Made by a program: the position numbers and the translations under genes. Positions 4,613 through 56,459 of a stretch of 64,000 nt of DNA are shown here, piece after piece. The number at the start of each line of letters is the position of its first letter. Position 1 is the stretch's first letter. The stretch lies in contig NC_134026.1 in assembly GCF_964204645.1 (NCBI RefSeq), forward strand, positions 28,864,150 to 28,928,149, written 5' to 3'. The notes below the pieces were generated by a model, which did no database searches, was not told the origin of the DNA, and saw nothing but the letters and a program-made list of their open reading frames with translations. The DNA comes from Tubulanus polymorphus (lineage: Eukaryota > Animalia > Nemertea).

Positions 4613-7600
4613 TTATAAATGAGTTATAGCATCTTCATCAGATACCAATCCAGCATCGTACTGACCAGTGGACGGTACACGTAGTAAATGGGACCCGTGT
4701 CTACCACTGCTACTATCTGAAGAACTAGAATCGGATGAACTAGAACCTCTTCGCAATGAACCTTGAAATCCGGCGTTTAACTGTGAATTGTCAGGGCTCT
4801 GGTCCCCTTTTGCTCGAAAACCTGTCATCTTCAATCCACCTGTATCAACACTCATCTATAAGAATATGAATCAAATCGTTACAGCGATTGTTTATGAGAA
4901 ATAAAATCAGACTCATTTTGTTAGATGTACAGTGGTTAAATATGAGATAGGAGGTTACGAGCTTCAGTTTCATTTCATTTGCTTCAAGTTTTCTTTTAAA
5001 ATTAGAATAGTTTTGTTAGATATATAGAAGTAACATAGTTAAATCTGTTACGAGCTGGTTAAGATATCTTTGATCCCAAGGTACATATTATTAGAATAGT
5101 GCAATGTGTTATGTACCTTGTACGGTTTTATTCCGTCCTGTGCTTTCTTCGGAGTGACGCGTGTACTAAGCTCAGGTCTTCTTACCTTCTTCTTCCTATC
5201 ATCGTCTTTCTTGATGTCTTCCTCGCTCGATGAAGACGTGGTTGAATGTTTATCAGACTCTACTTTTATCTCAGGCAAGTCGGCAGTAGGTTTAATTTTG
5301 ATATCTTCATCAGTAGTAAGATGCTTCTTTTTCTTGTGATGTTTCATCTTTTTCTTAGGTTCAATTTTTGTTCCCGCGGTAAATAGCTCTGGCTGTGCAT
5401 GAGCCTGAACTTCTATATCTGGTACAACAACATCTACATCCGAAGTTGTAATTGCATGCCACTCTGGAGGTGTAACGTCAAGTCGCTTCTGTTTCTTATC
5501 GTGATCGCTTTCTGATTCATCACTTTTTGATTTTTTCGATTTACTTTTCTTTTTTGGTAAATGTATTCCTCCTTTTCCAACATTGAACTTCCCCTTGTGT
5601 TTCTTTTTATGATCATCGTCGTCTTCGTCACTAGAGTGTTTCTCTTTACTTTTAATTTTTGGTGAAACATGATGCATCTTAGGTGTCAAGATACCTAGAT
5701 GTGCCTTAGGCTGCTTTTTCTTTCGTTTTGTATCATCATCAGAATCAACTTTGACTTCAATATTTGGTTCTACATTGAGCGTGTAATTGTCTTTCTTCTT
5801 TATTCTCGGACTTGGGACCCTTATTTTCTTGGTTTTTGGTTTATCCTTACGTTTATCACCACTTTCACTCGAAGAAGATTCGGGATGCTTCACATGTATT
5901 TCGGGAGGACTCTTTTCTATACTTAAATCCGGTGTCATATCATAATCTTTTTTCTTCCCAATACTTGGACTAGGTACAGAAATATTCAATTTATTCTTTT
6001 TCTTCTTTTTGCCATCACTACTTTCATTAGATGATTCGGCCTTCTTCGTAATCCTAGGACTTGGTATGCATATTCCACCAGAAAGTTTAGCCTTATGCTT
6101 TTCGTCACTGCTATCACTACTGTCTTCTTTGTCAACAGTTATTTCCGGTGTTTTAGTTTCAACATCAACATTTGCCTTTGGCTTTTTCTTTCGACCAAGA
6201 TTTGGACTAGGGAAGCGGAAACCACCTTTCACCTTAGACTGTTTAGGCTGCTTTTCACCATCACTTTCACTGCTTGACTTTCTATCATCAGAGACGTCAA
6301 CTTTGAAGCCGACATCTGGTACATCTGCATCTATTTCATGTTGCTTCTTTTTCTTGCCTAATTTTGGACTAGGAAAATGAATTCGACCTTTGCGTTTTGT
6401 TTTTAGCTTATCTTCGTCATCACTACTATTACCGGAACTACCATTCTCTTTTGATGGCTTCTTCTTCTTCTTCTTCTTGTCTGGTTCATCTTCACTATTT
6501 TCATCCTCGCTTCCAGATTTTTTGCTTCGCATCTTGAGCCGTGGTGATGGGACTCTAAGGTTAAAACCTTTTTTATGTTTCTTTTCATCACCACTCGACG
6601 GAAGCCCGATATCGGCTTCAACATCGAGTGTAGGTGCTTTTGGTTTATGATGCTTAATCTTTATCTCCTTTTCTACTTTAACCTCGGGAATCTTGTCATC
6701 GTCGGATATATTCCCTTGCATTTCAATAGATGGAATATTCATATCTATCCTACCCTTTCGATCATTATCAGAGACGTCTGGTGACCAAGTATTAAGCTCA
6801 ATTTTGTCTGGTTTCTTTTTGTTCTTATGTTTCTTGGGTTTCTTTTTCTCGTCGAAATCGCTTCGATAATCTGGAAGAGCAGCAACGACAGACATTTGAC
6901 CCTTCTCAATTTTTTCATCTTCATCTCCACTATCTATTTTTACTTCTTGTTGAAAGGTAAATCCACCAATGCTTGCTCGCTTTTTGAGTTTACCTTTCAT
7001 GCAGCATGGACTGCATGGTTTCTTTTTTTTTCTTTTGGTTGACGTCATTGCCTTGCCATCTGCCCCAACAGCTACTGTAACGTCATCATCGGACGAGACC
7101 GAACCGCAACATAGACAACATCGGGACGACCCGCAATGGTTTTCCTGTTTGATGACCTGTGTTTTTCCATCAGGACCAATGACTATAACTTCAGAGTTGT
7201 CTTCGGCACACGGTGAACAAGGGCTGCAAGACCCATTTGTCTTATATTTTCTTTCTTTTTTGACAGCTTGTGTTTGACCATCAGGACCGATAACTATATG
7301 TTCATCATCAGAATCTGCATGTGCCGAACAAGGACAGCATGGGCTACATGTACCACCATGTTTCTGTTGTTTCATGACCTGTGATTTTCCATCTGGTCCA
7401 ATTACGATAACTCTTTTAGAACTAGATGACTTGCAACACGAGGAACCCTTATCATTCTGTTTTGCCTCTTTTCTGACCACTTTTGTTTGTCCATCAGGAC
7501 CAACAACAATGTGATGTTCATCATCATCCGAGTCCGAATGTGCACAACATGGGCTGCATGGACTGCCGTGTTTGTTTTCATTAACGACCTGTGATTTTCC

Positions 7601-10600
7601 ATCTGGTCCCACAACAATAACCTTTTTGGAACGAGGTGATTTACAACATGATGAACACAGGCCGCGCTTATTCTTCTTTTTTTCCTTTTTAACAACTTTT
7701 GTCTCCCCATCAGGTCCGACAACAATTTGGTGCTCTTCATCAGAATCAGAGTGTGTGCAACAAGTACAACATAGGCTACATGAACCACCGTGTGTCCTAT
7801 CTTTAACGACCTGTGATTTTCCATCTGGTCCCACAACAATTACCTTTTTCGAACTAGACGGAATGCAACATGGTGAGCACGCGCTGCCCTTCTTTTTATG
7901 TTGTTTCTTCTTTTTGACAACTTCTGTTTCTCCATCAGGACCGACAACAATTTGGTGCTCGTCATCGGAATCCAAGTTGGCACAGCAGGTACAACATTGA
8001 CTACATGGACCACCGTGTTTCTTTTCTTTAATGACCTTTGATTTTCCATCTGGTCCCACTACTATAACTTTTTTAGAAGCAGATGACTTGCAACATGGGG
8101 AACACAAGCTGCCCTTGCTGTTCCGTTTTGTCCCCTTTTTGACCACTTCTGTTTCTCCATCAGGACGGACAATTATATGATGTTCTTCATCGTCCGAGTC
8201 TGAATGATCACAACATGGGCTGCATGGACCGCCGTGATTAGTCGTTTTTACAACGCGTGTTTTACCCTCTGGATCTATCACAATTACTTCTTCTCCTGAA
8301 CCGGAGCCTATACAGCACGGTGAACATGAAGCACCACCACGTTTCCTCTTTCGTTTCTTCACGATGTGTGGTTTACCGTCGATCTCAACATGATGCTCTT
8401 CATCCGATGCATTATGGCCAAGGCAACACGGAGAACAAGGACTACAAGATGTGTGTTTCTTTGTGCGCACAGTGTGTGACTTTCCATCGTCTCCAATAAC
8501 TATTACCTCTTCATCGGATGAACCATCACAGCATGGGCTACAAGGAGAACATTTAGATTTCTTTCCGTGTACAATTCTTGATTCTCCATCTTTTCCTATG
8601 ACCATTACTTCTTCATCCGATTCTTCGCAACATGGGCTGCATGGACAGCATTTTGCCTTTTTATTGCACCGCACAGTTTTAGTTTCACCATCTGCGCCAA
8701 CTACAATTTCTTCGTCACTTGTCTGTGCAGCACAACATGGACTACAAGCGCAGCTGTTTCCGCCTTTTTTCTTTCTTCGCACAGTTTTAGTTTCACCATC
8801 TGCACCAACTACAACTTCTTCGTCACTTGTCTGTGCAGCACAACATGGACTACAAGCGCAGCTCTTTCCGCCTTTTTTCTTTCTTCGCACAGTTTTAGTT
8901 TCACCATCTGCACCAACTACAATTTCTTCGTCACTTGTCTGTGCAGCACAACATGGACTACAAGCGCAGCTCTTTCCGCCTTTTTTCTTTTTTCGCACAG
9001 TTTTAGTTTCACCATCTGCACCAACTACAATTTCTTCATCACTTGTCTGTGCAGCACAACATGGACTACAAGCGCAGTTCTTTCTGAATTTTTTCTTTCT
9101 TCGCACAGTTTTAGTTTCACCATCTGCACCAACTACAATTTCTTCATCACTTGTCTGTGCAGCACAACATGGACTACAAGCGCAGCTGTTTCCGCCTTTT
9201 TTCTTTCTTCGCACAGTTTTAGTTTCACCATCTGCACCAACTAAAATTTCCTCTGTCGACTCGTCATCACAGCATGGGCTACAAGGACAACATTTATTCT
9301 TTCTTCTTCGTACATTATTCTTTTTCCCGTCCTTCCCTATAACTTCCTCTTCTTCTGAAGAACCATAACAACACGGACTACATAAAAGGAGACAACTGCC
9401 ACGCTTATTGTGGCCTTTGTTTCTCGTCTTGCCATCGGCTCCGACAACGACTTCATCGTCATCTGTAGAATCATCACAGCATGGACTACACGGGCTACAG
9501 ATAGCTCGTTGTCGTTGTTTCCTTCGAAGTCGTTTTCGTCTTTTACCCGAAATGCCACCACCAACACCTAAATCAGTTTTCAGTTCTCCCTCGTCATCCG
9601 TATCTGATCCACTGCCTTTTTCTCTCATTTCCTTCTGTCCCTTCGCATCACCAGACCAACCACTCTCGACATCGGATCTGAGTCGGTTTTTCTTACGTTT
9701 TTTTCGACAACAGCCGCAACATAAACACCAATCATCACACCACCCTCTACAGCACCCGAATACAATACAAATAATGATCAACAGCGCCAATAAAACAGCC
9801 AGCAAAATTACAGCGACTAACAACTGCATTCTTGCTCCTTAAATGAAAATGTTCAAAACGATTATTTCAGTTATCATTTAGCTATATCATGAAACCCAGG
9901 TAAATGCTGCCCTACCTATTAATATGGGAGCTCCGATTGGTGCTGCAGGATCTGAAATGAATTCATATATTTCACGTCGAGCAGAGATTTTTCAAATTGA
10001 TATTGAAATTGACACTGACATTGAAACTTACATAAAAAGTTAATGACTGTCGAACCTCTACCATTTGGACCATGATATTTTGGGTCACCTAGCTTGAAAA
10101 CCTGTGCTCGTTTTGCGGGGGGCATTCCACCAGGGATTCCACCTGCAGTTGCTCTACGCCTTCTAGCTACGGTGGTGTCTACGCCCATTGCATATGCTAC
10201 TAACATCGGCATGTTGGTTTTAATGAAATCATGGTCAGTTGATTCATTTGCTGAAATTCGAAAAGACGCCACATTTGTTTTATTCTACAATGTCTAATCA
10301 ATTCCAAAAGCAAAGTTCACAATTGGAGCATACCTTGCAGTTTTTTTCTGAACGCGACAAATGTATGTGTAGACGTCTGATAACCGACGACACCGGTGAG
10401 TGAATCAGTGAGTCCGAAATATGAATCTTCTAATGGATAGGCTGTACCCCACGAGTATAGATCCCGAATTCTTGTCTTATTTTTAAAGACTGACACTATG
10501 ACCATATCTAGGCAGGTCATGCTCGTAAATGCTATTTGAAAACAAACATATAACAACATTTAGGATTTCCTTAGCAGCAACTTCAAATTGGACAATTCAC

Positions 10601-13600
10601 AATACTCACTGAGGGATTTGGCTGTTGCCGCGGGGAAAGCCGCACCACCCGGTTGTAATGGGACAGCACCCGTGCCACTACCTAGGGTAGTGGTCGGTAC
10701 TTTCAGCCAGTCATTACACGTATTATTCAAAATACCTGAAATAAGGATTTGCGATTTCATTCCAGTCATTCCATATTAAGACTTATTAAGTAAAGGAAAT
10801 GATCGTACTGTTTGGTCGCCAACCGATTCCAACCCAGGATGGTGTCTTCACGTCCAATATCATCTCAATCTCATTCGTACTCTGAAATACATAGATACTG
10901 GATGATGTAACTTAATCATGTTGCTTGGATTTCTGTCCCATGTCACACATTACTACTATGCCTATCCAGATGCGCTTACATTTAGTACTTTCCAGTATAG
11001 GATAAAATCACTGCGTAATGTTTGTTTCTGGTAAATATTGATGTCCTGATATGATTTGGGTAGTGAGGTAAGTGATGATTCTAAAAAGGAGAATTATACA
11101 TAAATCTAATATTATTTCTAGATGAGAAATATCTATTTCGAAAATAATAGTTTTAGGCGTTTCCTTCATGAACAGATTTTCAGGTGCACCTACTTCTATT
11201 ACAGTATTTGCCTATCCAGCCTTGGTAGCAATAGCATCGTCTTCTGGGGTATGTGACAGATGCCATGTCGTAACAGATACCATTATTGTTACAATCAGTT
11301 GTATCCCAACATTCATCTAAACAAAGTCACAGATATGTAGGTCCATAAATCGATATGTGATAAGTTGATCTTGAAGTACTGAACATACGGTATTTACCTT
11401 TGTACTGACAGAATGCCCCTGCGTAAAGCTTCGAACAAACGCACTTATTTCCATTCCAGCTACCATTTGATCCACAAGCGGCTGTCTTATTGAAAGAAGC
11501 TGAAAAAGACGAACACTACGTGAGCCATAGAATTACTGTACAGTCGTTTCTTTTTTTTACTTTCGTCACCGATGAACTAGCGATCCCACTTAAAAACAAA
11601 GATTTACAAACCTGTGGCAACAATGTTGACATCAGAACATGACCAATAGTAAGTGGTATTAGCCGAATCAAAAAGCAGAACCCGCAGGATACAATTCTGA
11701 CAGGTGTGAGCTGCGGGAAATGTCAATTGGAATTCCTCTTGTCTATAAAAAAAATTCACACGAAATGATAATTTAGTTCAATTCTCTTGGCATATCCTCT
11801 TCAAATGACTTACGTGTAGATAGCCGGTGCTCCAAACGTTGGTTGGTTAGCATTAACAGCTGGAATCACATTGGATATAAGCTTTCCCGTTGCATCCAAA
11901 ATTTGAACTATCAAACTTCCCTTTTGAAATTTAGAATAAAAAGAAAACATTCCAAGTAGAGTGATTTAAATAGAGATCACAAGTATGATCTAAAACAGCG
12001 ATTATTCCTGTTTTCATACACACCTTCTCTATAACTGCCACTCTAAACATGATTTTAACTGCGACTCCTGCTTCGATATTTACTGGATTTGTTCCTAAGT
12101 ATGAAATAGAAATACCCCCTTCATAATGTTATGGACAATTATATGGACAATGACGATCAGCAATCATTCATGTTATAATGTTTTGCTTTTGAAAATGATG
12201 CCGATTTTTGCAGTAAGTTATAGAGTCTAAGTCTTTCTTCCTGTTAATACAATTCGTTGAAATTTCGTTGGTATTTTTAACGTAAAGTACGTGGATTGAC
12301 CTGAGGGTCGATGGGGTGTTTTTCTCTTGAATCTGGTCTGGGCTTCATATTTAATCGCATCTGACCTAAAAATGCCCAGCGAAATTCTAGCCATAATGAA
12401 CGGCACTGTCCATAAATAATTGATAAAATCTGTATTACAGATAGAATTTTTTGACGATATTTTGTCGCTTTTATCATTTCATTAATGGGCAGGTCTCCCA
12501 ATAGACCTACTCACTACTTATATTTGCATACTTCAACATATTAGGCCAAGTACTGTTTTCGATACTCTTTTTCTGAACTCTGGTACTTGTATTAGTTACT
12601 TATATGTGAATGAACCACCCTTAGCAAGGTTTTACACGAATTGGTCATGAATATCCGCGAGCATATCGACCTAACTATCATTGAGTTCTTCTACAGTAGC
12701 TTTTTCCCTCGTGAATCTTATGGACTTAATAAAAATCGAATCCTTTATTCAAAAAATTATAAAATTCTTACAATAGAACAGCACCATTATTAATATGATT
12801 ATAAATATTAGTATATATATTATAATATATTGTCTCTGTGGCGCAATCGGTCAGCGCGAAGGTTGGTGGTTCAAGCCCACCCAGGGACGCTTTATACTTT
12901 TCACTTTATTCTAAAAATACATCCTTATGTATTTCTGCTGTATGAAAAGCTGTTACATTTTAATCTAGATTGATGTTTCTAACGCCTACTATATATTCAA
13001 AATATTTCGTTGCAATCGGTACAAGATATGGGTGTGAACGATCATGCATAAGTGCCATTAAAAATTCCACTGACGAATTCTGAGACTTTGTGGTTTTTAA
13101 GTAGGGCGTCGAGGAATAGGTTTCGAATTGACAAAATTGTTTACAGTTGAATCAACAGTGTGTATTTTTATTTTCTACCTAATGCCGACTCATTGGTTCA
13201 TCGGTGAAATTATGTTTGTCATTATATAACTGCGTTAACTTTTGCGTACTATAGAATAAACTTGTGTATTATTCAGACATTATGGCAATGCTCGTCGTCT
13301 TATTTGAAAAAAAAAGTATCACTTTTATAATTTGACTACTTTTTTCATTGTATATATATATACTATTCAATTCTATTCTTGATGACTGTCCCACGAACCA
13401 TAGTTTTATTTACCCCAGTGAAGAATACTTAGCTTTATGTATAATGACAATAGTAAACGTTTGGATAGTGGAAGAATTTGGGGTAAGGACGGGTGCGGTA
13501 TTTACTCACTGCAGTAATAAGGTGGCTTACTACAAATAGATACCTGTTTATTGACTGGATAGGTGCATTTACTATCATTTATTGAGCGACAAAATTGAAA

Positions 13601-14188
13601 TTCTACAATAATTATAATATTTCACTAGATTATTGTTTTCATTCATTTATGAACGTCCAAAGTGGTCCAAAATAAATACTTCTAATAATAAGAAACGAGA
13701 AAACTAAATATGCCAGTGCTCCACCCTACGTACGTAACTTCTTAAGTTAATATAGAAAACATATACGTATACGATTAAAAACATATGGACCAATAGAAAG
13801 GTTTTCTACAAAATAGGGTTCGATAAATATTATCTGAAAACACTTTTTCTGAAAAAAAAAATAATTTCATATTTTTTCTTCGCATACTTTTAGACTTTTG
13901 TTTGTGAATGAAATGAAAATGATCTGCGCAAATTAATGTTGATTTCAGTACATGTAAAAAGCAGTTTAAAATAAGTTAAAAATATGATTTCGCTTTAAAT
14001 TGATACATAGATAACATACCGGGTGTTTTATCCATTCCACCGCAAATCGGATTGGTATTTTTGTAGTTGAGATTATCGAAAGCGTATCTTCTCGCTGGTG
14101 GCCAAAGTAACGAAATATGACCGCTACATTGATGGAACATCATCAAAGCCGAGATGGATATTCCAAGGTATAACTTGAATACATCCAT
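4613..14188 (-). CDS. Giant type I membrane protein (~2139 aa): signal peptide, His1 LPMO-like domain, 2x EGF, DOMON, TM, Cys-rich repeat and Lys/Asp/Ser-rich cytoplasmic tail
   Basis: 14 phase-consistent GT-AG exons: 14188-14020, 12094-12024, 11920-11814, 11742-11612, 11499-11398, 11316-11194, 11080-10980, 10881-10809, 10735-10610, 10531-10334, 10250-10032, 9951-9916, 9837-5117, 4855-4613 (sum 6420 nt). Motifs: CSG|HISLLWPPARRY..PICGG..TCQNCILR..YYWSCSDV; CGSNGSWNGNKCVCSKLYAGAFC; ECWDTTDCNNNGIC..RCYCYQGWIGKYC; LYWKVL..IEMILDVKTPSWVGIGW..SMTCLDMVI..FRKKL..DHDF..KYHGPNGRG; TM LLVAVILLAVLLALLIIICIVFG. Confidence 0.85.
8671..9243 (-). repeat. Coding minisatellite, 108-bp (36-aa) unit, about 5.3 near-identical copies
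   Basis: gcacagttttagtttcaccatctg recurs at 8671, 8779, 8887, 8995, 9103, 9211; encodes CSPCCAAQTSDEEIVVGADGETKTVRRKKKGGKSCA. Confidence 0.95.
12832..12889 (+). pseudogene. tRNA-Asn(GTT)-derived sequence lacking the anticodon arm
   Basis: GTCTCTGTGGCGCAATCGGTCAGCGCG joined directly to AAGGTTGGTGGTTCAAGCCCACCCAGGGACG matches the 5' and 3' halves of the canonical metazoan tRNA-Asn. About 16 nt (TTCGGCTGTTAACCGA) are missing. Acceptor stem GTCTCTG/CAGGGAC still pairs. Confidence 0.88.
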
Positions 14189-15781: not shown

Positions 15782-16496
15782 TCATAACACGTCGGGTTTT
15801 GGTGAATGTTCTTCAACGCAGTCATTAAATGTTTGATATAAAGACATACAACGTTCTACTGAAGTAGGATTTACACGTATGCACTGATTATATTTATCAA
15901 ACACATTCGCACAATCCAATTTGATTTTCTTAATCACCGGACTGAAAGAGAAAATACATCATGAAGAAAGTGAATATCTTGCCGACACGAAAAGCACAAT
16001 TTTATCACAACTTTACACTAATAAAAATGACAATATTACTACATTTTGCTATATCTAGGCTTAGATTTAGGATTAGAGTTAATAATTTTAGGGCTGGAAT
16101 TAGGAGCAGGGTTAGTACGTTGTCCTTGGAGAAACAGGGGAATCTGTACATTGTCTACAATTAACTAACTGTGTATCTGAACAGCGAGCAACTGATAGTC
16201 TCAACATGTCGCATGTAGATGGCCACGAATGAGGATGTTTTTCGACACATTCTGCATATTTTGACATTTCAGAACTACAATGTTTCATCACTAGTTTCAT
16301 CGTGGCATCCCTACACAAAAAAGAAAAAAAAATATTTAAAACAGCTAGAAATCTGTCCGTTATCATCCATGCCCGCCGGCATCGCTATCGTCAGACCGGG
16401 GTGTCACACAGACAGTACGCTTTTAATACCGACGTCGGACGTGGTGACGGTAGGAAAAAACCCCAATAAATGGAAAATATACTTTTCAACTCACAT
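15782..16496 (-). CDS. CHCHD5: CHCHD5, mitochondrial intermembrane-space protein with four CX9C motifs
   Basis: Exons 16496-16495 (AT|gtgagt), 16310-16170, 15941-15782. MDATMKLVMKHC-SSEMSKYAE-C..C-DMLRLSVAR-C..HPVIKKIKLDC-ANVFDKYNQ-C..C-MSLYQTFND-C. The start codon is split by an intron. Confidence 0.88.
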
Positions 16497-17159: not shown

Positions 17160-18353
17160 ATGATGGCCTCAGCATCATCAGTGAAGAAGGGAATGCGGCG
17201 GTTCTCGGCGTTACCAGTTTATGTAGTTGATGACCACAATGAAGTTCTACCATTCATATACCGATGCATCGGCTCCAAACATCTTCCGATGTCCGGAATA
17301 AAGATCATTCATTTTGACGCGCATCCTGATCTTTTGATTCCCGCTGAATATCCCGCCGACAAAGTGTTCAACAAGGACGAACTTTTTGAAGTTTTGAGTA
17401 TCGAAAATTGGATAATGCCGGCCGTTTACGCAGGTCACATAGATTCAGTGGACTGGGTTAAACCGGCGTGGGCGCAGCAAATACGAGAAACAACAATGAA
17501 AATTACTGTGGGAAAACATCGAACATCTGGAACTATAAAACTGAACAATACTGAAACATATTTCATGAGTGAACTATTATACGCTCCGAACAGTGAGCTT
17601 CTCAATCAGAAAGGGTTAAACGTTTCCGTTAAAACTCTTCCTCATATCCTGAGAGCTAATAATCCTGTAGCAGGGGAACCAGATTCCTCGGAGCACCAAA
17701 AACATGGTTTAAAAAGATCTGCATCTGGGGATTTTATAACTCAATGTGATGATCAGTTTTTCATTCTGGATATTGATTTGGATTTCTTTTCAACTGTGAA
17801 TCCATTCAAATCTATATATACTGAACATCAGTATTCATTGTTGAAACAGATTTTCCGTTTTCAGCCACCGACAAACTCTAGTGAGAAATCTATCCAAATG
17901 TGCCTGGAAAATCGACAGAAACAACTCGCTGAAATTAGGCTTTTTATCAAGGAAGCCGTGCTGGAAAATAAAACCTCAAAAACTTCAATTACCGGTAATG
18001 AAAATATTTCAATGCGTAGGAAATTGGTCCATGAACTGATTTCTGAAATATGTGCTAAAACCTCTGAAGAAATTGATATTGATCAAATCATGCAAACAGG
18101 TTTCACTTGTGATGACGACAGTGAACTTCCTCATCATATTAGTTCCGATGAGGAAATTCACCGATTAATACTTAATGTCAGCGATTATCTGAAAGATTTA
18201 CCTCATAAACCGACTATAGTTACGATAGCTAGATCGAGTAGTGATGAGTATTGTCCATTAGATCAAGTTGATCAGATTCAATCGTTGGTTTTTGACTTAC
18301 TTACCAAACATTACGGTGAATTAAATGTAACCTTGAAATATAAGGATGATTGA
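17160..18353 (+). CDS. C5orf22: UPF0489 family protein (C5orf22 homologue), single coding exon
   Basis: LPVYVVDDHNEVLPFIYRCIGSKHLP, HFDAHPDL, LSIENWIMPAVYAGH, ILDIDLDFFSTVNPF, ELPHHIS and TIARSSSDEYCP motifs. Confidence 0.92.
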   Translation: MMASASSVKKGMRRFSALPVYVVDDHNEVLPFIYRCIGSKHLPMSGIKIIHFDAHPDLLIPAEYPADKVFNKDELFEVLSIENWIMPAVYAGHIDSVDWVKPAWAQQIRETTMKITVGKHRTSGTIKLNNTETYFMSELLYAPNSELLNQKGLNVSVKTLPHILRANNPVAGEPDSSEHQKHGLKRSASGDFITQCDDQFFILDIDLDFFSTVNPFKSIYTEHQYSLLKQIFRFQPPTNSSEKSIQMCLENRQKQLAEIRLFIKEAVLENKTSKTSITGNENISMRRKLVHELISEICAKTSEEIDIDQIMQTGFTCDDDSELPHHISSDEEIHRLILNVSDYLKDLPHKPTIVTIARSSSDEYCPLDQVDQIQSLVFDLLTKHYGELNVTLKYKDD

Positions 18354-41217: not shown

Positions 41218-41964
41218 TTCTTAAACAGGTTCACGACAATGAGATTCGACAATGTGCTGAAGGTTGGGGTGAAAAACAAACGTTAGATATATGTCTCTTG
41301 AAATGAATGTAGCTGACGCTAACTCCGCTTGCCAGTGCCAGCACCACTAGCATTAACCCCGCTTGCCAGTGCCATCATCACTCGCTTGCCACAGACCCTG
41401 CTCGCAGGTTACGGTGACGAAGTGTTTGACAATTGTACAAACTCAAGGTCGTAGAGCGAATTCCTGAAGCTGAAACGATTTTCGATGATTTTTTTACATA
41501 AATTGTCATAGGTGATTAGCAAAGCAAATGATGTATATGGCTAAAGGTTTAAAATCATTCATTATTTATTTGAGCATTGCGCTTGAGTTTGAAATTGCCA
41601 CTCATTCAATCATTCAATGCATCATTGAAAATCAAACCAAATCGAATTATAATAAGGTCATGCACTCAAAGTCCAGGCCCCTTGGCCATGTTGGCCTTGT
41701 CCTTGTGACGCAGATAATGGACAATGTTAGGCCTACAGTTAACCAGTGCACAGAGCGGTCAATCACTTGCATGCTGACACTGATATAAAGATATTTTATG
41801 AACACTATGCATCCTCTCTATCATCTTTTGTGACAATCCCTTGTGGTTCTATGTGACAATCCCCTGTAGTCTGTGAGCCACATTAACTCTGCCACATGAT
41901 ACTTATTAACAACATGCTTATTGTAATAATTTCAGAGTCAATGGTTGGGAGAAAGTAATGAAAG

Positions 41965-44006
41965 ATGTTGGCAAAATTGAATCAACGCGCTTTGGCCTAT
42001 TCGGGTGCATCATTGGGAGCCTCGATCGTTCACTCAGTTTTTATGTTTTACTATGTGAAAGTTTTCCTAAATCGTTATCACGTTACAGAGTGGTGGTTCC
42101 AAGTCTCCCAGACGCTATTTCTCATCTGGAATTCAGTGAACGATCCACTGTTTGGTTATTGTCAGGATAACGTGAAGATGAAATGTTTTCAAAGTCGGCG
42201 ATTGATCATACTGAGCGGGTCGTTTCTCTTTTCGCTATCATTCCTGGTTCCGTGGTTTCCATGGACGACCGATCCGAAAAATGAATGGATCGTCGGATTA
42301 CATCTTATCGTAGCTTTATTCTTCTACGACGCTATGTTCACCTATGTATTGATCGCTCATGCTTGTCTATTCGCTGAACTTTCCACAAGTATCGAAGATA
42401 GAATTCGTTTAGTCCGGTATACACGATTTGCCTCATTGATCGGTGGTTTATCCGTGTTTATATGCGAATCAATCTCGAGGAATTTGAAGAATTATCTAGC
42501 GTTCCAGATCACATGCGTTGCTCTCGCGCTGATATCTTGGCAATGCTTTCGTTATACGGGTAACAATTGCCACACTGAATGGGATCTGAAAGCTAAAGAA
42601 GAACACGGCAATGAGGATGCAGTCGCTGACCGCTCAAGTCAATACACCTGGTGGCAGTTGGTTAAACAGCTATTCACGAATCGTAATTTCATCTGTGCAG
42701 TTTTGCTCACTTTATTCTCAGATTTTCATCGTAATTATCTCAGTAATTTCATGGCGATAATTGGCGACAGTTTGCTACCAAATCTTAATTCTGGAACCCG
42801 AAGTGTTTTGTATGGAGCTTCTACGTTTTTACCACAGGTACTGCTCAGAGGACAGTTGCTCGAAAGTTGGTTAGAAATAATGGACGAATACCATGGTAAC
42901 AATTTGAATACAATTTCAATTGTCGCTATGTCATTTATCCACTAGTTAACCAGATATCTAAATTAAAATGTTGATTGTTTCAATTATCCGGTCGTGCTCC
43001 TATCAGCAGATATGTGTTCATATTTTTCAGATTTTGATCATTGTTTCTACTCCACTTCTATCGAAATTTGGATATTACAGAGTAATGGGACTGATGATAT
43101 TATTGAAAATTATGCTTGGTCCCTGTATGTATCTGATTGGTCGATCGTCCATTATATTGTACGCTATATATCTCCTTTTAGAAGGGTAAGACATTTCTGA
43201 ATGATAGGCTTGTTATATTTTCTTTTCGATTCTGATATCCTATGTTTAATACTTAAAGGTGTGTAAGTACATTAGTTGCTGGTCCATTCGCTCTGATGTT
43301 TTCTGATGTCATTGATGAAGACTGTCTTAAATATAAACGGCGGTATGTACATTCATTGAATCAATTATGGATTAGGCTAAACAAAAATGATACCTTGTTT
43401 CTCCGCAGCGGCCGGGTCATTTTTGTAAAATATGATAAAATTTATAAACAGTTCATTTCTATAGCGGCCGGGTCTATTATGGTAAAATTGATCACGATTT
43501 TAAAAAAAGTAATGTATAGGGTAGATAGGCGGCTGGCCGGGTCAACATTTAAGCTCACCAGAGCGGAGAAACAAGGTATCAATTTTTTTTAGCCTTACAG
43601 TCAACCCCCATTCCACTCTAACGCCAGGTTTTTTCTAAAAGAAAGGAACTTCTGTATTTTGTCTTGGAAATTAACGATATACCACTATACTTATCTTTTC
43701 TCTTTCAGCCATCCAATTTCAGCAATGGTGTTTGCAGGAAATGCTCTCATCGTAAAACCTGCGCAGTCATTTGCACCTATGATAACTGTAGCGATTTTCA
43801 ACGCTTATGGTTATGAGAAACTTCCTAAAAATAACGTTTTGTCGGTCGCAGCAGATTCTAGTTTCACGCCGCTATTTGAGACAATGTTTGGATATTCATG
43901 TTGGTTACCATGTGTCATCGGTTTGATACAGATTATATTGTGGAAATGCTTCACAATAAGAGATACACACAAAACTATCCCTGTATACAATGATAATGTT
44001 TGTTAA
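41965..44006 (+). CDS. MFSD13A: MFS-type transporter MFSD13A (TMEM180), 4 coding exons
   Basis: VFMFYYVKVFL..IWNSVNDPLFG, FLVPWFPW, YDAMFTYVLIAHACLFAE, DVIDED..Y.R, PISAMVFAGNALIVKPAQSFAPM. Exons approximately 41965-42837, 43031-43185, 43259-43342, 43710-44006. Confidence 0.88.
43375..43594 (+). mobile_element. 220-bp PIF/Harbinger MITE, copy 2 (MFSD13A intron)
   Basis: Same TIRs as copy 1; TTA target duplication. Confidence 0.92.
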
Positions 44007-54183: not shown

Positions 54184-56459
54184 ATGGGTTGTGATGGTGG
54201 TACTATTCCTACCCGGGATGAACTCGTGAAAACAAAGAAAAAACCAGAAAAGGTAAAAATATAGAAATCCCGACTGTCTCAGGTTCATCAATTCTGAAAT
54301 TGTTGAACAAATTCCTAAAATTTAGTCTTATAAACTAAAGTTTTTTTTTCTTTGTGGATATTTTTTCAGAGAGATAAGGATGCAGATTTAGCAGCAACAT
54401 GGCAAATGTGTGCTTTATTACAGACACCATTAGAACGGCCAATTGTAGCTTGTCAGTTAGGCAGGTTGGTGACACTACAAAATCAATTAACCTTGAATGA
54501 CTAATTACATTAAATTCAGGATGGTGCCAAACTGTTCATTACTGTTCATTCTCTGTAGTGATGTATTTCAGGTTGTATAACAAAGAAAGTGTGATCGAAT
54601 TTCTACTTGAACGCGAGAAATTTGATGAGGAAAAATCAATCAAATTCAATCACATCAAAGCGTTAAAGGTAGAGATAGGAATTATCTAAATGCAACTCTA
54701 TAAATAATTTAATCTTTTAGTAATGAATAAATATACCAATTATTTTTAATGAAATATTACTAAGTGAGAGAGCTTTTTATGGAAACCCTGTCACCTAACC
54801 AATACTAATCAACAAACGAGCCGGACACCAATAGGCCGCCACCAGGCCTCCTTCCATCCGTGAATTTGATGATGATGATGATCTATCTATTTGTTGTACC
54901 TATCTATTGATTGAATTATGTTTTATCCTAAATTGCTTAAATTTCTTACAGGATGTAAAACAGTTGAATTTGACGGACAACCCGGCATATACGAGTGAAT
55001 CATTAACCGGAGATGCTTATGCCGATAGATGTATGTCAAAGTTTATCTGCCCCGTTACTGGGCTAGAAATGAGTGGAAGATTTCGGTAATTCAGTTCGTT
55101 AAAAACATTTAAGGCGTTTTTGCCGACGGTGCATTTTATAACTTTTGAATATTCAATTCATTTCAGGTTTTGTTATATATGGAGCTGCGGTTGTGTAGTG
55201 TCTGAAAGAGCGCTGAAAGAAGTGAAATCTGTAATTTGTCATAAGGTAAATACAATCAAACTCATTGGATAAGTATTCCATATTTCTTAGTCCTTATTTG
55301 TATATCCAATAAATTAAATGGTTGTCATCATTTGGATAAGTCCAGTGTTCTCCACTATAGGTTTTAGAGTTTCATTTTTACATCCACCCCTCTGAATATC
55401 AGTGACCCCTTAGGCTAAACAAAAATGATAACTTGTTTCTCCGCAGCGGCCGGGTCATTTTTATAAAATATGATAAAATTTGTAAACAGTTCATTTCTAT
55501 AGCGGCCGGGTCTGTTATGGTAAAATTGATCACGATTTTTAAAAAAGTAATGTATAGGGTAGATAGGCGGCCGGCCGGGTCAACTTTTAAGCTCAGCAGA
55601 GTGGAGAAACAAGGTATCAATTTTTTTTAGCCTTAATATCTGCTGCACCTACCAGAGTGGATGACGTCGACGTTCAATCAATCTGTAGTTTTACTTTTTA
55701 TGAAATAGAAAATTCAAGTTGTGTTAAGAACCAGTTGTTATCAATGTGTGCATTTATTCTATTAAAGTGCGGTTTACCCTATGAGGAAGATGATGTTATT
55801 TTATTGAATGGAAATCATGACGAGGTCGATGTTTTATGGGTTAAAATGGAATCCAGAAAACAGAAATTACGCGCTGAAAAGGTAAAATTCATTACACCCT
55901 CTGTCAACATCATTGCTTTACAGATTACAATAAATATGAGGCAAATATTGTATGTGAGTTCGTTATAACGAGGTTCCACTGTAGTACTTCATAGTTTAAC
56001 TAGTATATTAGACGCAAGACCTTCAGCTACTAGAGTATGGTAGCTTAATCGGGTGAATGAGTGAATGATTGATTACAATGTTTATTTGTTTTTATAGAAA
56101 GCAAAGAAAAAGAAACTGGATTCAACAGCAACATCAGGTAGAAATCTAGCATCGCTTTGAAATAAACATTAATATAAGTTATATAGTTTTTGACGTGATA
56201 ATTTTCACTGATTTCAGCTGGTGAAGCAGCATCGAGTAGTAAACAGCCACGACTCGACACTAATGGCATCTCGTTGACTAAATCTAAAAATGGCGGAGGA
56301 AAGACTAAAAGCAAAACTGATAAGGATTCGGATAAAAAGAAAAGTATTCAACATGATCCAACTGCCAGTAAAGTTTATAAATCTTTGTTTACTACATGTG
56401 ACAAGGCTAAGAATCAACAGAAAGCTCATTGGGTGACATTTAATCCTCAATATAACTAA
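54184..56459 (+). CDS. RTF2: Replication termination factor 2 (RTF2/C20orf43), 8 exons
   Basis: MGCDGGTIPTRDELVKTKKKPEK, PIVACQLGRLYNKESVIEFLL, HIKALKDV, FICPVTGLEMSGRFRF..CGCVVSERALKEV..CHKCG, SKVYKSLFT..AHWVTFNP. Confidence 0.95.
55413..55632 (+). mobile_element. 220-bp PIF/Harbinger MITE, copy 4 (RTF2 intron)
   Basis: Same TIRs; TTA target duplication. Confidence 0.92.

Follow-up and report, generated by a model that had tools for sequence, protein, structure and literature searches.

An apparently undescribed cysteine-cluster repeat in the predicted cytosolic tail of a DOMON- and EGF-containing membrane protein of the nemertean Tubulanus polymorphus

Introduction

In BK-STREX, the S-acylated dicysteine is immediately preceded by a polybasic region that is needed for acylation, and by this arrangement the cytosolic tail is attached to the membrane. 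A cysteine beside a basic region is found in more than 30% of S-acylated channels, and cysteines adjacent to a transmembrane (TM) segment are a common position for acylation (PMC4035745). Repeated Cys-Gly-Pro is the hallmark of the Mst(3)CGP proteins, which are needed for sperm-tail assembly (PMC10645079), and an early-branching clade combining DOMON/EGF with LPMO_10 is noted in PMC6950343. Here we analyse a gene on the minus strand of a 64,000-nucleotide stretch of the genome of Tubulanus polymorphus (Nemertea; assembly GCF_964204645.1, contig NC_134026.1, positions 28,864,150 to 28,928,149), hereafter the window, within which all positions are counted. Its predicted product joins an ectodomain whose layout we take, on architecture, to be that named Nahoda to a long tail bearing 23 tandem units with cysteine clusters. 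From this one genome, sequence analysis points to a repeat that is real, under selection and apparently undescribed, carried by a protein whose ectodomain architecture is known.

The tail resembles the cysteine clusters of the BK channel STREX and GluN2 in having polybasic runs upstream of dicysteines in a long, predicted cytosolic tail, with both juxtamembrane and distal clusters. In contrast to the one or two sites of those proteins, there are 24 here plus the juxtamembrane one; there is no homology, and acylation of the present tail is a prediction. By analogy, it would work most like a STREX-type anchor repeated more than 20 times on a Nahoda-type ectodomain. The predicted protein shares with Nahoda-type proteins, in order, a signal peptide, an N-terminal histidine, an LPMO/BIM1-like head, two EGF domains, a DOMON domain and a single TM helix, and differs from them in having one DOMON, Glu104 in the second brace-histidine column and a tail of 1630 amino acids (aa) with cysteine repeats. 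With Mst(3)CGP of Drosophila and mammalian ODF1 it has in common a C-x-P-C-x-P-C-C-like tripeptide rhythm (PMC10645079, PMC12584897), but here serine takes the place of glycine, a hairpin and charged runs lie between the clusters, the protein is a TM protein and the Pfam MSSP match is below its cut-off. The contiguous Cys-Gly-Pro repeats of that group are absent, and C-S-P occurs at most twice per cluster. Metallothioneins, which are small proteins with about 30% cysteine, likewise have cysteine clusters, very few aromatic residues (here 3 in 833) and lysines nearby; the array, however, has 11% cysteine (92 in 833 aa) and is embedded in a 2164-aa membrane protein, and no metallothionein family is found among the Pfam matches listed (25 of 26 families).

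Results and Discussion

Anatomy of the repeat array

The original prediction had described about 23 copies of a unit, between positions 7000 and 9740, composed of CSPCC, an acidic patch, a GxDG hairpin and a polybasic run. We found 23 units followed by a 24th cluster (Table 1), each unit ordered as cysteine cluster, Ser/acidic linker, V-V-G-x-D-G hairpin and basic run. An ordered motif made up of CC, a hydrophobic strand, [DE]G and a basic pair was counted 18 times, whereas 2000 shuffles gave 0.0085 on average and never more than 1. The array is confirmed. The D-G turn is the most constant part of the unit; across the 23 units, the hairpin columns hold G(-2) in 20, D in 22, G in all 23 and V(+6) in 18. 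The remainder is looser than first described. Exact SPCC is found in only 18 of the 24 clusters, the CxxCC core in 21 and the CC pair in 23, with two to five cysteines per cluster and 25-35 non-cysteine residues between clusters. At least three K/R lie within the 12 residues upstream of 19 clusters (mean net charge there +4.6) and at least three D/E within the 12 residues downstream of 18, so that the basic run and the acidic linker are usual, not universal. The linker is basic, not acidic, in the alternating units 14, 16, 18 and 20.

Two sub-arrays are recognisable at the DNA level: a young one of a 108-bp repeat (5.4 copies, 96% identity, 8670-9250) and an older one of a 225-bp two-unit repeat (4.2 copies, 75% identity, 7257-8172). 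The four 225-bp modules share 35 invariant columns, among them two histidines and four cysteines. In the distal half, a histidine directly precedes the cluster in six units and an acidic-His pair precedes the hairpin in five. The 108-bp array breaks the DNA contigs of run X1, and its copy number may vary or be mis-assembled by one or two units.

Selection and predicted structure

The ratio of non-synonymous to synonymous substitution rates (dN/dS) between the four 225-bp modules was 0.18-0.26 in all six pairs, compared with medians of 0.73-0.74 and 2.5% points of 0.36-0.40 in neutral simulations of the module. Since all six values fall below the neutral 2.5% points, the older modules are under purifying selection. 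For the near-identical 108-bp copies, pN/pS was 0.71 on changes too few to judge. Comparison with other runs gave 36 single-base differences, of which 30 were scored (six rows in intron 1 were omitted) and three may lie between collapsed repeat copies. Twenty are coding, 12 synonymous and eight non-synonymous, with no stops; none of the eight is at a cysteine or the D-G turn, and the one coding indel among the runs is 3 nt. The array is coding sequence under selection.

FoldIndex was -0.004 for the array and -0.24 for the distal tail. Two AlphaFold2 models, both of low confidence (predicted local distance difference test, pLDDT, 42 and 40), gave one isolated two-strand hairpin per unit (three of three and eight of eight units) and showed, at that confidence, no compact repeat fold such as a beta-propeller. 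The array is likely a disordered chain in which marginal hairpins recur at intervals of ~36 residues. Fold searches on the pLDDT-42 model returned no Foldseek match at E<=0.001 and a best VIA Z of 2.3, which is uninformative given the low confidence of that model.

Membrane topology and gene model

Scored on a biological hydrophobicity scale, the predicted TM helix at aa 516-536 has an insertion score of -8.4, and the next best segment +6.8. The net charge is +2 before this segment and +6 after it, and the signal peptide, EGF and DOMON domains all lie upstream. Because of this single strong TM helix, the charge bias and the upstream domains, we infer that the protein is type I and that its 23-unit tail is cytosolic, which supports the earlier placement of the repeats on the cytoplasmic side. 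The hydrophobic stretch exceeds 20 residues and is followed by a basic run, so by the positive-inside rule the tail would be cytosolic even if translation started at the in-frame Met514 (window position 9829), which precedes this stretch. N-glycosylation sequons (seven in the ectodomain, eight in the tail) are enriched in neither part and do not discriminate between topologies.

The predicted gene comprises 15 exons and 2164 codons in one frame from the ATG at 14188, and all 14 introns are GT-AG. Contigs of run X2, which represents one sample from one study, show three splice joints, namely exons 5/6, 6/7 (11316/11398) and 14/15 (4855/5117), and also cover pieces within the array. The link between ectodomain and tail is placed at the predicted 9916/9837 joint; the acceptor of exon 14 ends in AAG.

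The ectodomain

Exon by exon, the Pfam matches run from BIM1-like to LPMO_10, two EGF and DOMON, all below the curated cut-offs because the exons are fragments. His24 follows C-S-G and aligns with His1 of 15 of 15 AA10 domains; the signal peptide before it was judged by eye and is only moderately hydrophobic. In four of four alignment settings, Glu104 (12029-12027, exon 3) falls in the column that holds the second brace histidine of 15 of 15 AA10 domains; the alignment is remote (hidden Markov model score 2.6 bits). His73 and His153 are present elsewhere in the LPMO-like domain. The canonical copper brace has thus probably been lost or has degenerated in the head, and the aligned sequence, with the second brace histidine absent from its column, argues against classing the protein as a canonical histidine-brace protein. 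In the related Egh16-like family, an acidic residue replaces the second histidine (PMC6950343), so that a His/carboxylate site is conceivable here. Glu104 recalls the His/Asp arrangement of those proteins. Reuse of a Nahoda-type ectodomain without the canonical brace hints at a non-catalytic, adhesive or matrix-anchoring role.

The DOMON domain has plausible candidate haem ligands in Met364 (in M-x-x-x-D) and His485; haem-binding DOMON uses Met/His ligands (PMC10691727). DOMON is also among the domains of brachiopod and annelid shell or tube proteomes (PMC13425148), which has no bearing on the repeat. A run of four arginines in a DOMON loop (aa 455 onward; about 10165-10150, exon 12) fits the furin consensus R-x-[KR]-R, and the ectodomain could be clipped there. 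Word searches with the ectodomain, made one exon at a time, gave no homologue, and a query of the ESM atlas with the ectodomain gave two unnamed eukaryote clusters at 0.93-0.94, of low recognition value.

Searches for relatives of the repeat

A profile built from the 23 units, as the original prediction had proposed, found no whole-unit relative among 1.84 billion representative proteins. There were 14 matches at E<=0.001 and none at 1e-10, and the best stretch in each of the 14 starts at profile position 15 or later, past the cysteine cluster, and covers the hairpin only. Most are propeller-like repeat proteins from bacteria, in which the matched hairpin is a turn of the repeat; the others include an adhesin, also bacterial, a Ki-67-like protein from a frog and an unnamed acidic repeat protein. 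This library did not return the window's own protein and so lacks this animal; related animals may be absent too. A word-seeded protein search with the array (lengths 877-2793), in which low-complexity words may crowd out relatives, gave none at E<=0.001 among 7977 scored candidates. The ESM atlas gave no usable match to aa 400-900 of the repeat-bearing open reading frame (ORF), and the unit profile gave six matches to PDB sequences, the best at E=0.3.

A DNA pattern that finds 12 of the 23 units in the window and none in shuffles matched 107 metagenome, 3 viral and 94 prokaryote stretches, with one match each among those listed (80, 3 and 80). All 204 loci scored at most 16.3 bits, compared with 36.9-65.2 for true units, and a scan for related loci in metagenomes confirmed none of 579 pattern matches; these collections are mostly non-animal and say little about related animals. 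Literature searches on nahoda, DOMON/EGF/LPMO/BIM1, palmitoylated tandem repeats and CSPCC, whose coverage excluded subscription journals, did not find the repeat described. The earlier view that the repeat is apparently novel therefore survived every search run; since related animals may be missing from these libraries, that it is undescribed is supported, not proven.

Among Pfam families, the stannin linker PF09050 matched 7 of 21 unit triples (best E=8.8e-9). Its score clears the cut-off only as a sum over three near-identical copies (34.7 bits); a single 108-bp-type unit, which resembles it over a short acidic linker and hairpin, reaches 16.3 bits against a cut-off of 25. No other unit type matched, and four of five single units tested had no Pfam match. 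Fibrinogen alpha-C PF12160 shows a similarly short resemblance, with 17 bits on a distal triple against a cut-off of 22. We read both resemblances as convergence. Stannin/hemotin is treated together with 14-3-3 in PMC4807881. The likeness to the C-tail of mucolipin-1, a palmitoylated protein, is at chance level (E=2.4); one review that we searched for this palmitoylation did not mention it. By the features tested, the sequence is not a metallothionein, a CGP protein or stannin.

Proposed S-acylation and its alternatives

Cysteine clusters in the cytosol may plausibly be acylated, bound to metal, or oxidised in a terminally differentiating cell. Tentatively, we favour the first, and predict that the 23 units are S-acylated dicysteine staples that hold a largely disordered cytosolic scaffold to the membrane. 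In each unit, attraction between the basic run and anionic lipid would bring the chain to the membrane, where the dicysteine cluster next to the run would receive S-acyl chains; the acidic linker and the predicted two-strand hairpin would project into the cytosol and act as a recurring spacer or docking site. This would lay an 830-residue strip on the inner leaflet, with a charged tail of 700 residues beyond it. The whole may be a lineage-specific scaffold, of the membrane skeleton or of a membrane domain, added to a surface protein whose canonical copper brace has probably been lost. Acylation is plausible because of the eight-cysteine juxtamembrane cluster, the near-constant CC pair, the upstream basic runs and the STREX precedent. 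The STREX-like combination of dicysteine and upstream basic run is found in the array, on the presumed cytosolic side, and the first cluster abuts the TM helix. If acylated, the tail would provide a naturally occurring series of over 20 similar sites that lie progressively further from a TM anchor; on it one could test how far and how densely zDHHC enzymes acylate one chain, and whether zinc competes with acylation at CxxCC clusters.

Several observations weigh against S-acylation. The CxxCC spacing suits a metal knuckle or a disulfide at least as well, and in the distal units conserved histidines stand on both sides of the clusters. The acidic patch after 18 clusters would repel anionic lipid, and the upstream basic run is weak at five of the 24. 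The 92 cysteines far outnumber those in acylated cysteine strings such as that of cysteine string protein, with a dozen or so. Among the contigs, none joins ectodomain exon 13 to exon 14; spliced cover is absent from exons 8-13, which in itself proves nothing. No orthologue was found in the libraries searched. The proposal that CK2-type sites switch membrane binding fared unevenly. Such sites are indeed enriched (31 compared with 19 in shuffles, P=0.0025) and occur at 18 of the 24 clusters, but the switch itself is unsupported, because the STREX switch is a phosphorylation inside the polybasic stretch (PMC4035745) and the sites here lie in an already acidic patch.

An extended form of the acylation model is unlikely as a whole. 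It would make the protein a Nahoda paralogue without a copper brace that gained a 23-fold lipid staple, with dozens of S-acyl chains, some 830 residues laced to the membrane, a row of beta-hairpins and a His-rich distal half switching between acylated and zinc-bound states, and hence a new membrane-skeleton or membrane-stacking protein. To our knowledge, dozens of S-acyl chains would be more than on any other single polypeptide.

The closest competitor, possible though doubtful, reads the array as a structural element built on zinc-thiolate sites or disulfide crosslinks. In the cytosol, zinc would be bound by the C-x-P-C-x-P-C-C clusters, joined in the distal half by neighbouring His/Asp/Glu; later oxidation could crosslink the tails to give a rigid coat beneath the membrane, comparable to what sperm-tail CGP proteins or cornifying cells show. 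The CxxCC core, the histidines before clusters and hairpins, the presence of both histidine and cysteine among the invariant module columns, and the confinement of histidine enrichment to units 11-23 (22 compared with 4) all fit this, as do a weak Pfam MSSP match (E=0.036, 14.1 bits compared with a cut-off of 21.2) and the C-x-P rhythm common to Mst(3)CGP proteins. Against it, cysteine makes up only 11% of the array, the clusters lie far apart, the number of ligands varies from two to five, units 1-10 are nearly without histidine and the motif is C-S-P, not C-G-P; the cytosol, moreover, is reducing outside terminally differentiating cells. A mixed state, with proximal units acylated and distal units zinc-bound, is possible. 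Were the structural element real, sperm-tail CGP proteins would have in this tail a counterpart anchored in the membrane. Of the three models first put forward for the array, acyl anchors and a zinc or disulfide structure are both still candidates, and the store coupled to a copper ectodomain is weakened.

It is improbable that the gene model or topology differs, whether through a separate product of exon 14 starting at Met514, an ectodomain that ends by reading into intron 13, or cleavage of the hydrophobic segment as a signal, with secretion and disulfide bonding of the Cys-rich repeats. The missing spliced cover of exons 8-13 extends to the start of exon 14, which, with its AAG acceptor, the in-frame methionine before the hydrophobic stretch and the non-discriminating sequons, leaves room for it. 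On the other side stand the 14 GT-AG introns and the single frame across 2164 codons; run X2 alone yields spliced contigs from exons 5-7 and exons 14-15, and the hydrophobic stretch with its basic run would keep the tail cytosolic even from Met514. A tolerated low-complexity expansion, functional only in bulk and charge, is more improbable still. The 96% identity of the 108-bp copies with their pN/pS of 0.71 on few changes, the failure to find relatives and the eight non-synonymous changes among the 20 coding positions at which other runs differ from the window would suit it, but the dN/dS of the older modules lies far below the neutral median, none of the eight amino-acid changes falls on a cysteine or the D-G turn, and the sole coding indel is 3 nt; for units 13-21, this reading is largely refuted. 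Least probable of all is a copper store inside the cell that is coupled to the copper-fold domain outside it. In its favour, Cu(I) can be bound by cysteine clusters, a plausible signal peptide precedes His24, the domain is flanked by weak matches to BIM1 and LPMO_10, and an Egh16-like site may be left. Against it, Glu104 replaces the second brace histidine in the remote AA10 alignment, a single TM helix offers no known metal path between a head and a tail that the membrane separates, and the array lacks metallothionein-like cysteine density.

Other features of the window

The coordinates of the gene and its neighbours are collected in Table 1.

Table 1. Positions of the repeat array, the remaining parts of the predicted gene and the neighbouring genes in the window
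Feature	Position	Strand	Remarks
Repeat-bearing ORF	5048-9838	minus	1596 codons; holds TM helix, juxtamembrane Cys cluster and array; one exon of ~4.7 kb
Units 1-23, each with hairpin	9499-7016	minus	aa 624-1451 of gene model; 30-42 aa each
Units 1-10, His-poor	8447..9499	minus	4 His in 351 aa; contains 108-bp array
Units 11-23, His-rich	7016..8446	minus	22 His in 477 aa; contains 225-bp two-unit array
24th Cys cluster (CSPCC)	7001..7015	minus	no hairpin after it; closes array
Juxtamembrane cluster	9689..9754	minus	8 Cys, then basic run
Single predicted TM helix	9761..9823	minus	aa 516-536
Exon 1	14020..14188	minus	start codon; putative signal peptide (aa 1-23); predicted mature protein starts at His24; first part of LPMO/BIM1-like domain (PF20238, E=0.018, below cut-off)
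Exons 2-5	12365-12291, 12094-12024, 11920-11814, 11742-11612	minus	remaining LPMO-like domain; PF03067 E=0.026 on exon 5
Exons 6-7	11194..11499	minus	two EGF-like domains; best E 9.6e-4 and 3.9e-4, below cut-offs
Exons 8-13	9916..11080	minus	one DOMON and short Pro-rich stalk; PF03351 E=5.1e-6 on exon 11; splice sites inferred
Distal tail	5117..7000	minus	Lys/Ser/Asp-rich, predicted disordered, 1 Cys
Exon 15	4613..4855	minus	Ser-rich C-terminus and stop
Twin CX9C (CHCH-CHCH) gene	15785-16384	minus	directly upstream of studied gene, same strand
UPF0489 gene	17160-18353	plus	single-exon coding region; head-to-head with twin CX9C gene
Basic helix-loop-helix (bHLH) gene exon	1801-2424	plus	PF00010 E=7.8e-20; tail-to-tail with studied gene
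MFS_2 transporter exons	41962-44006	plus	E=9e-14
Rtf2 RING-like exon	55591-55968	plus	E=2.9e-6

The distal tail carries a second, loose repeat of six [FILV]-x-[FILV]-P-S-P motifs with basic flanks, ~30-60 aa apart (about 6560-5800). The motif gave no match in Pfam or PDB; it looks AHNAK/periaxin-like. Among the neighbours, we presume that the bHLH exon is TAL1/SCL-like.

Intron 1 holds, at about 12826-12890, a fragment resembling tRNA-Asn that has a T-arm but apparently lacks an anticodon arm. ARAGORN called no tRNA there, and Rfam gave only a weak unrelated match. DNA contigs pile up over the fragment (depth 187 compared with ~20) and have loose ends, suggesting that it is multi-copy, possibly a short interspersed nuclear element or a tRNA pseudogene.

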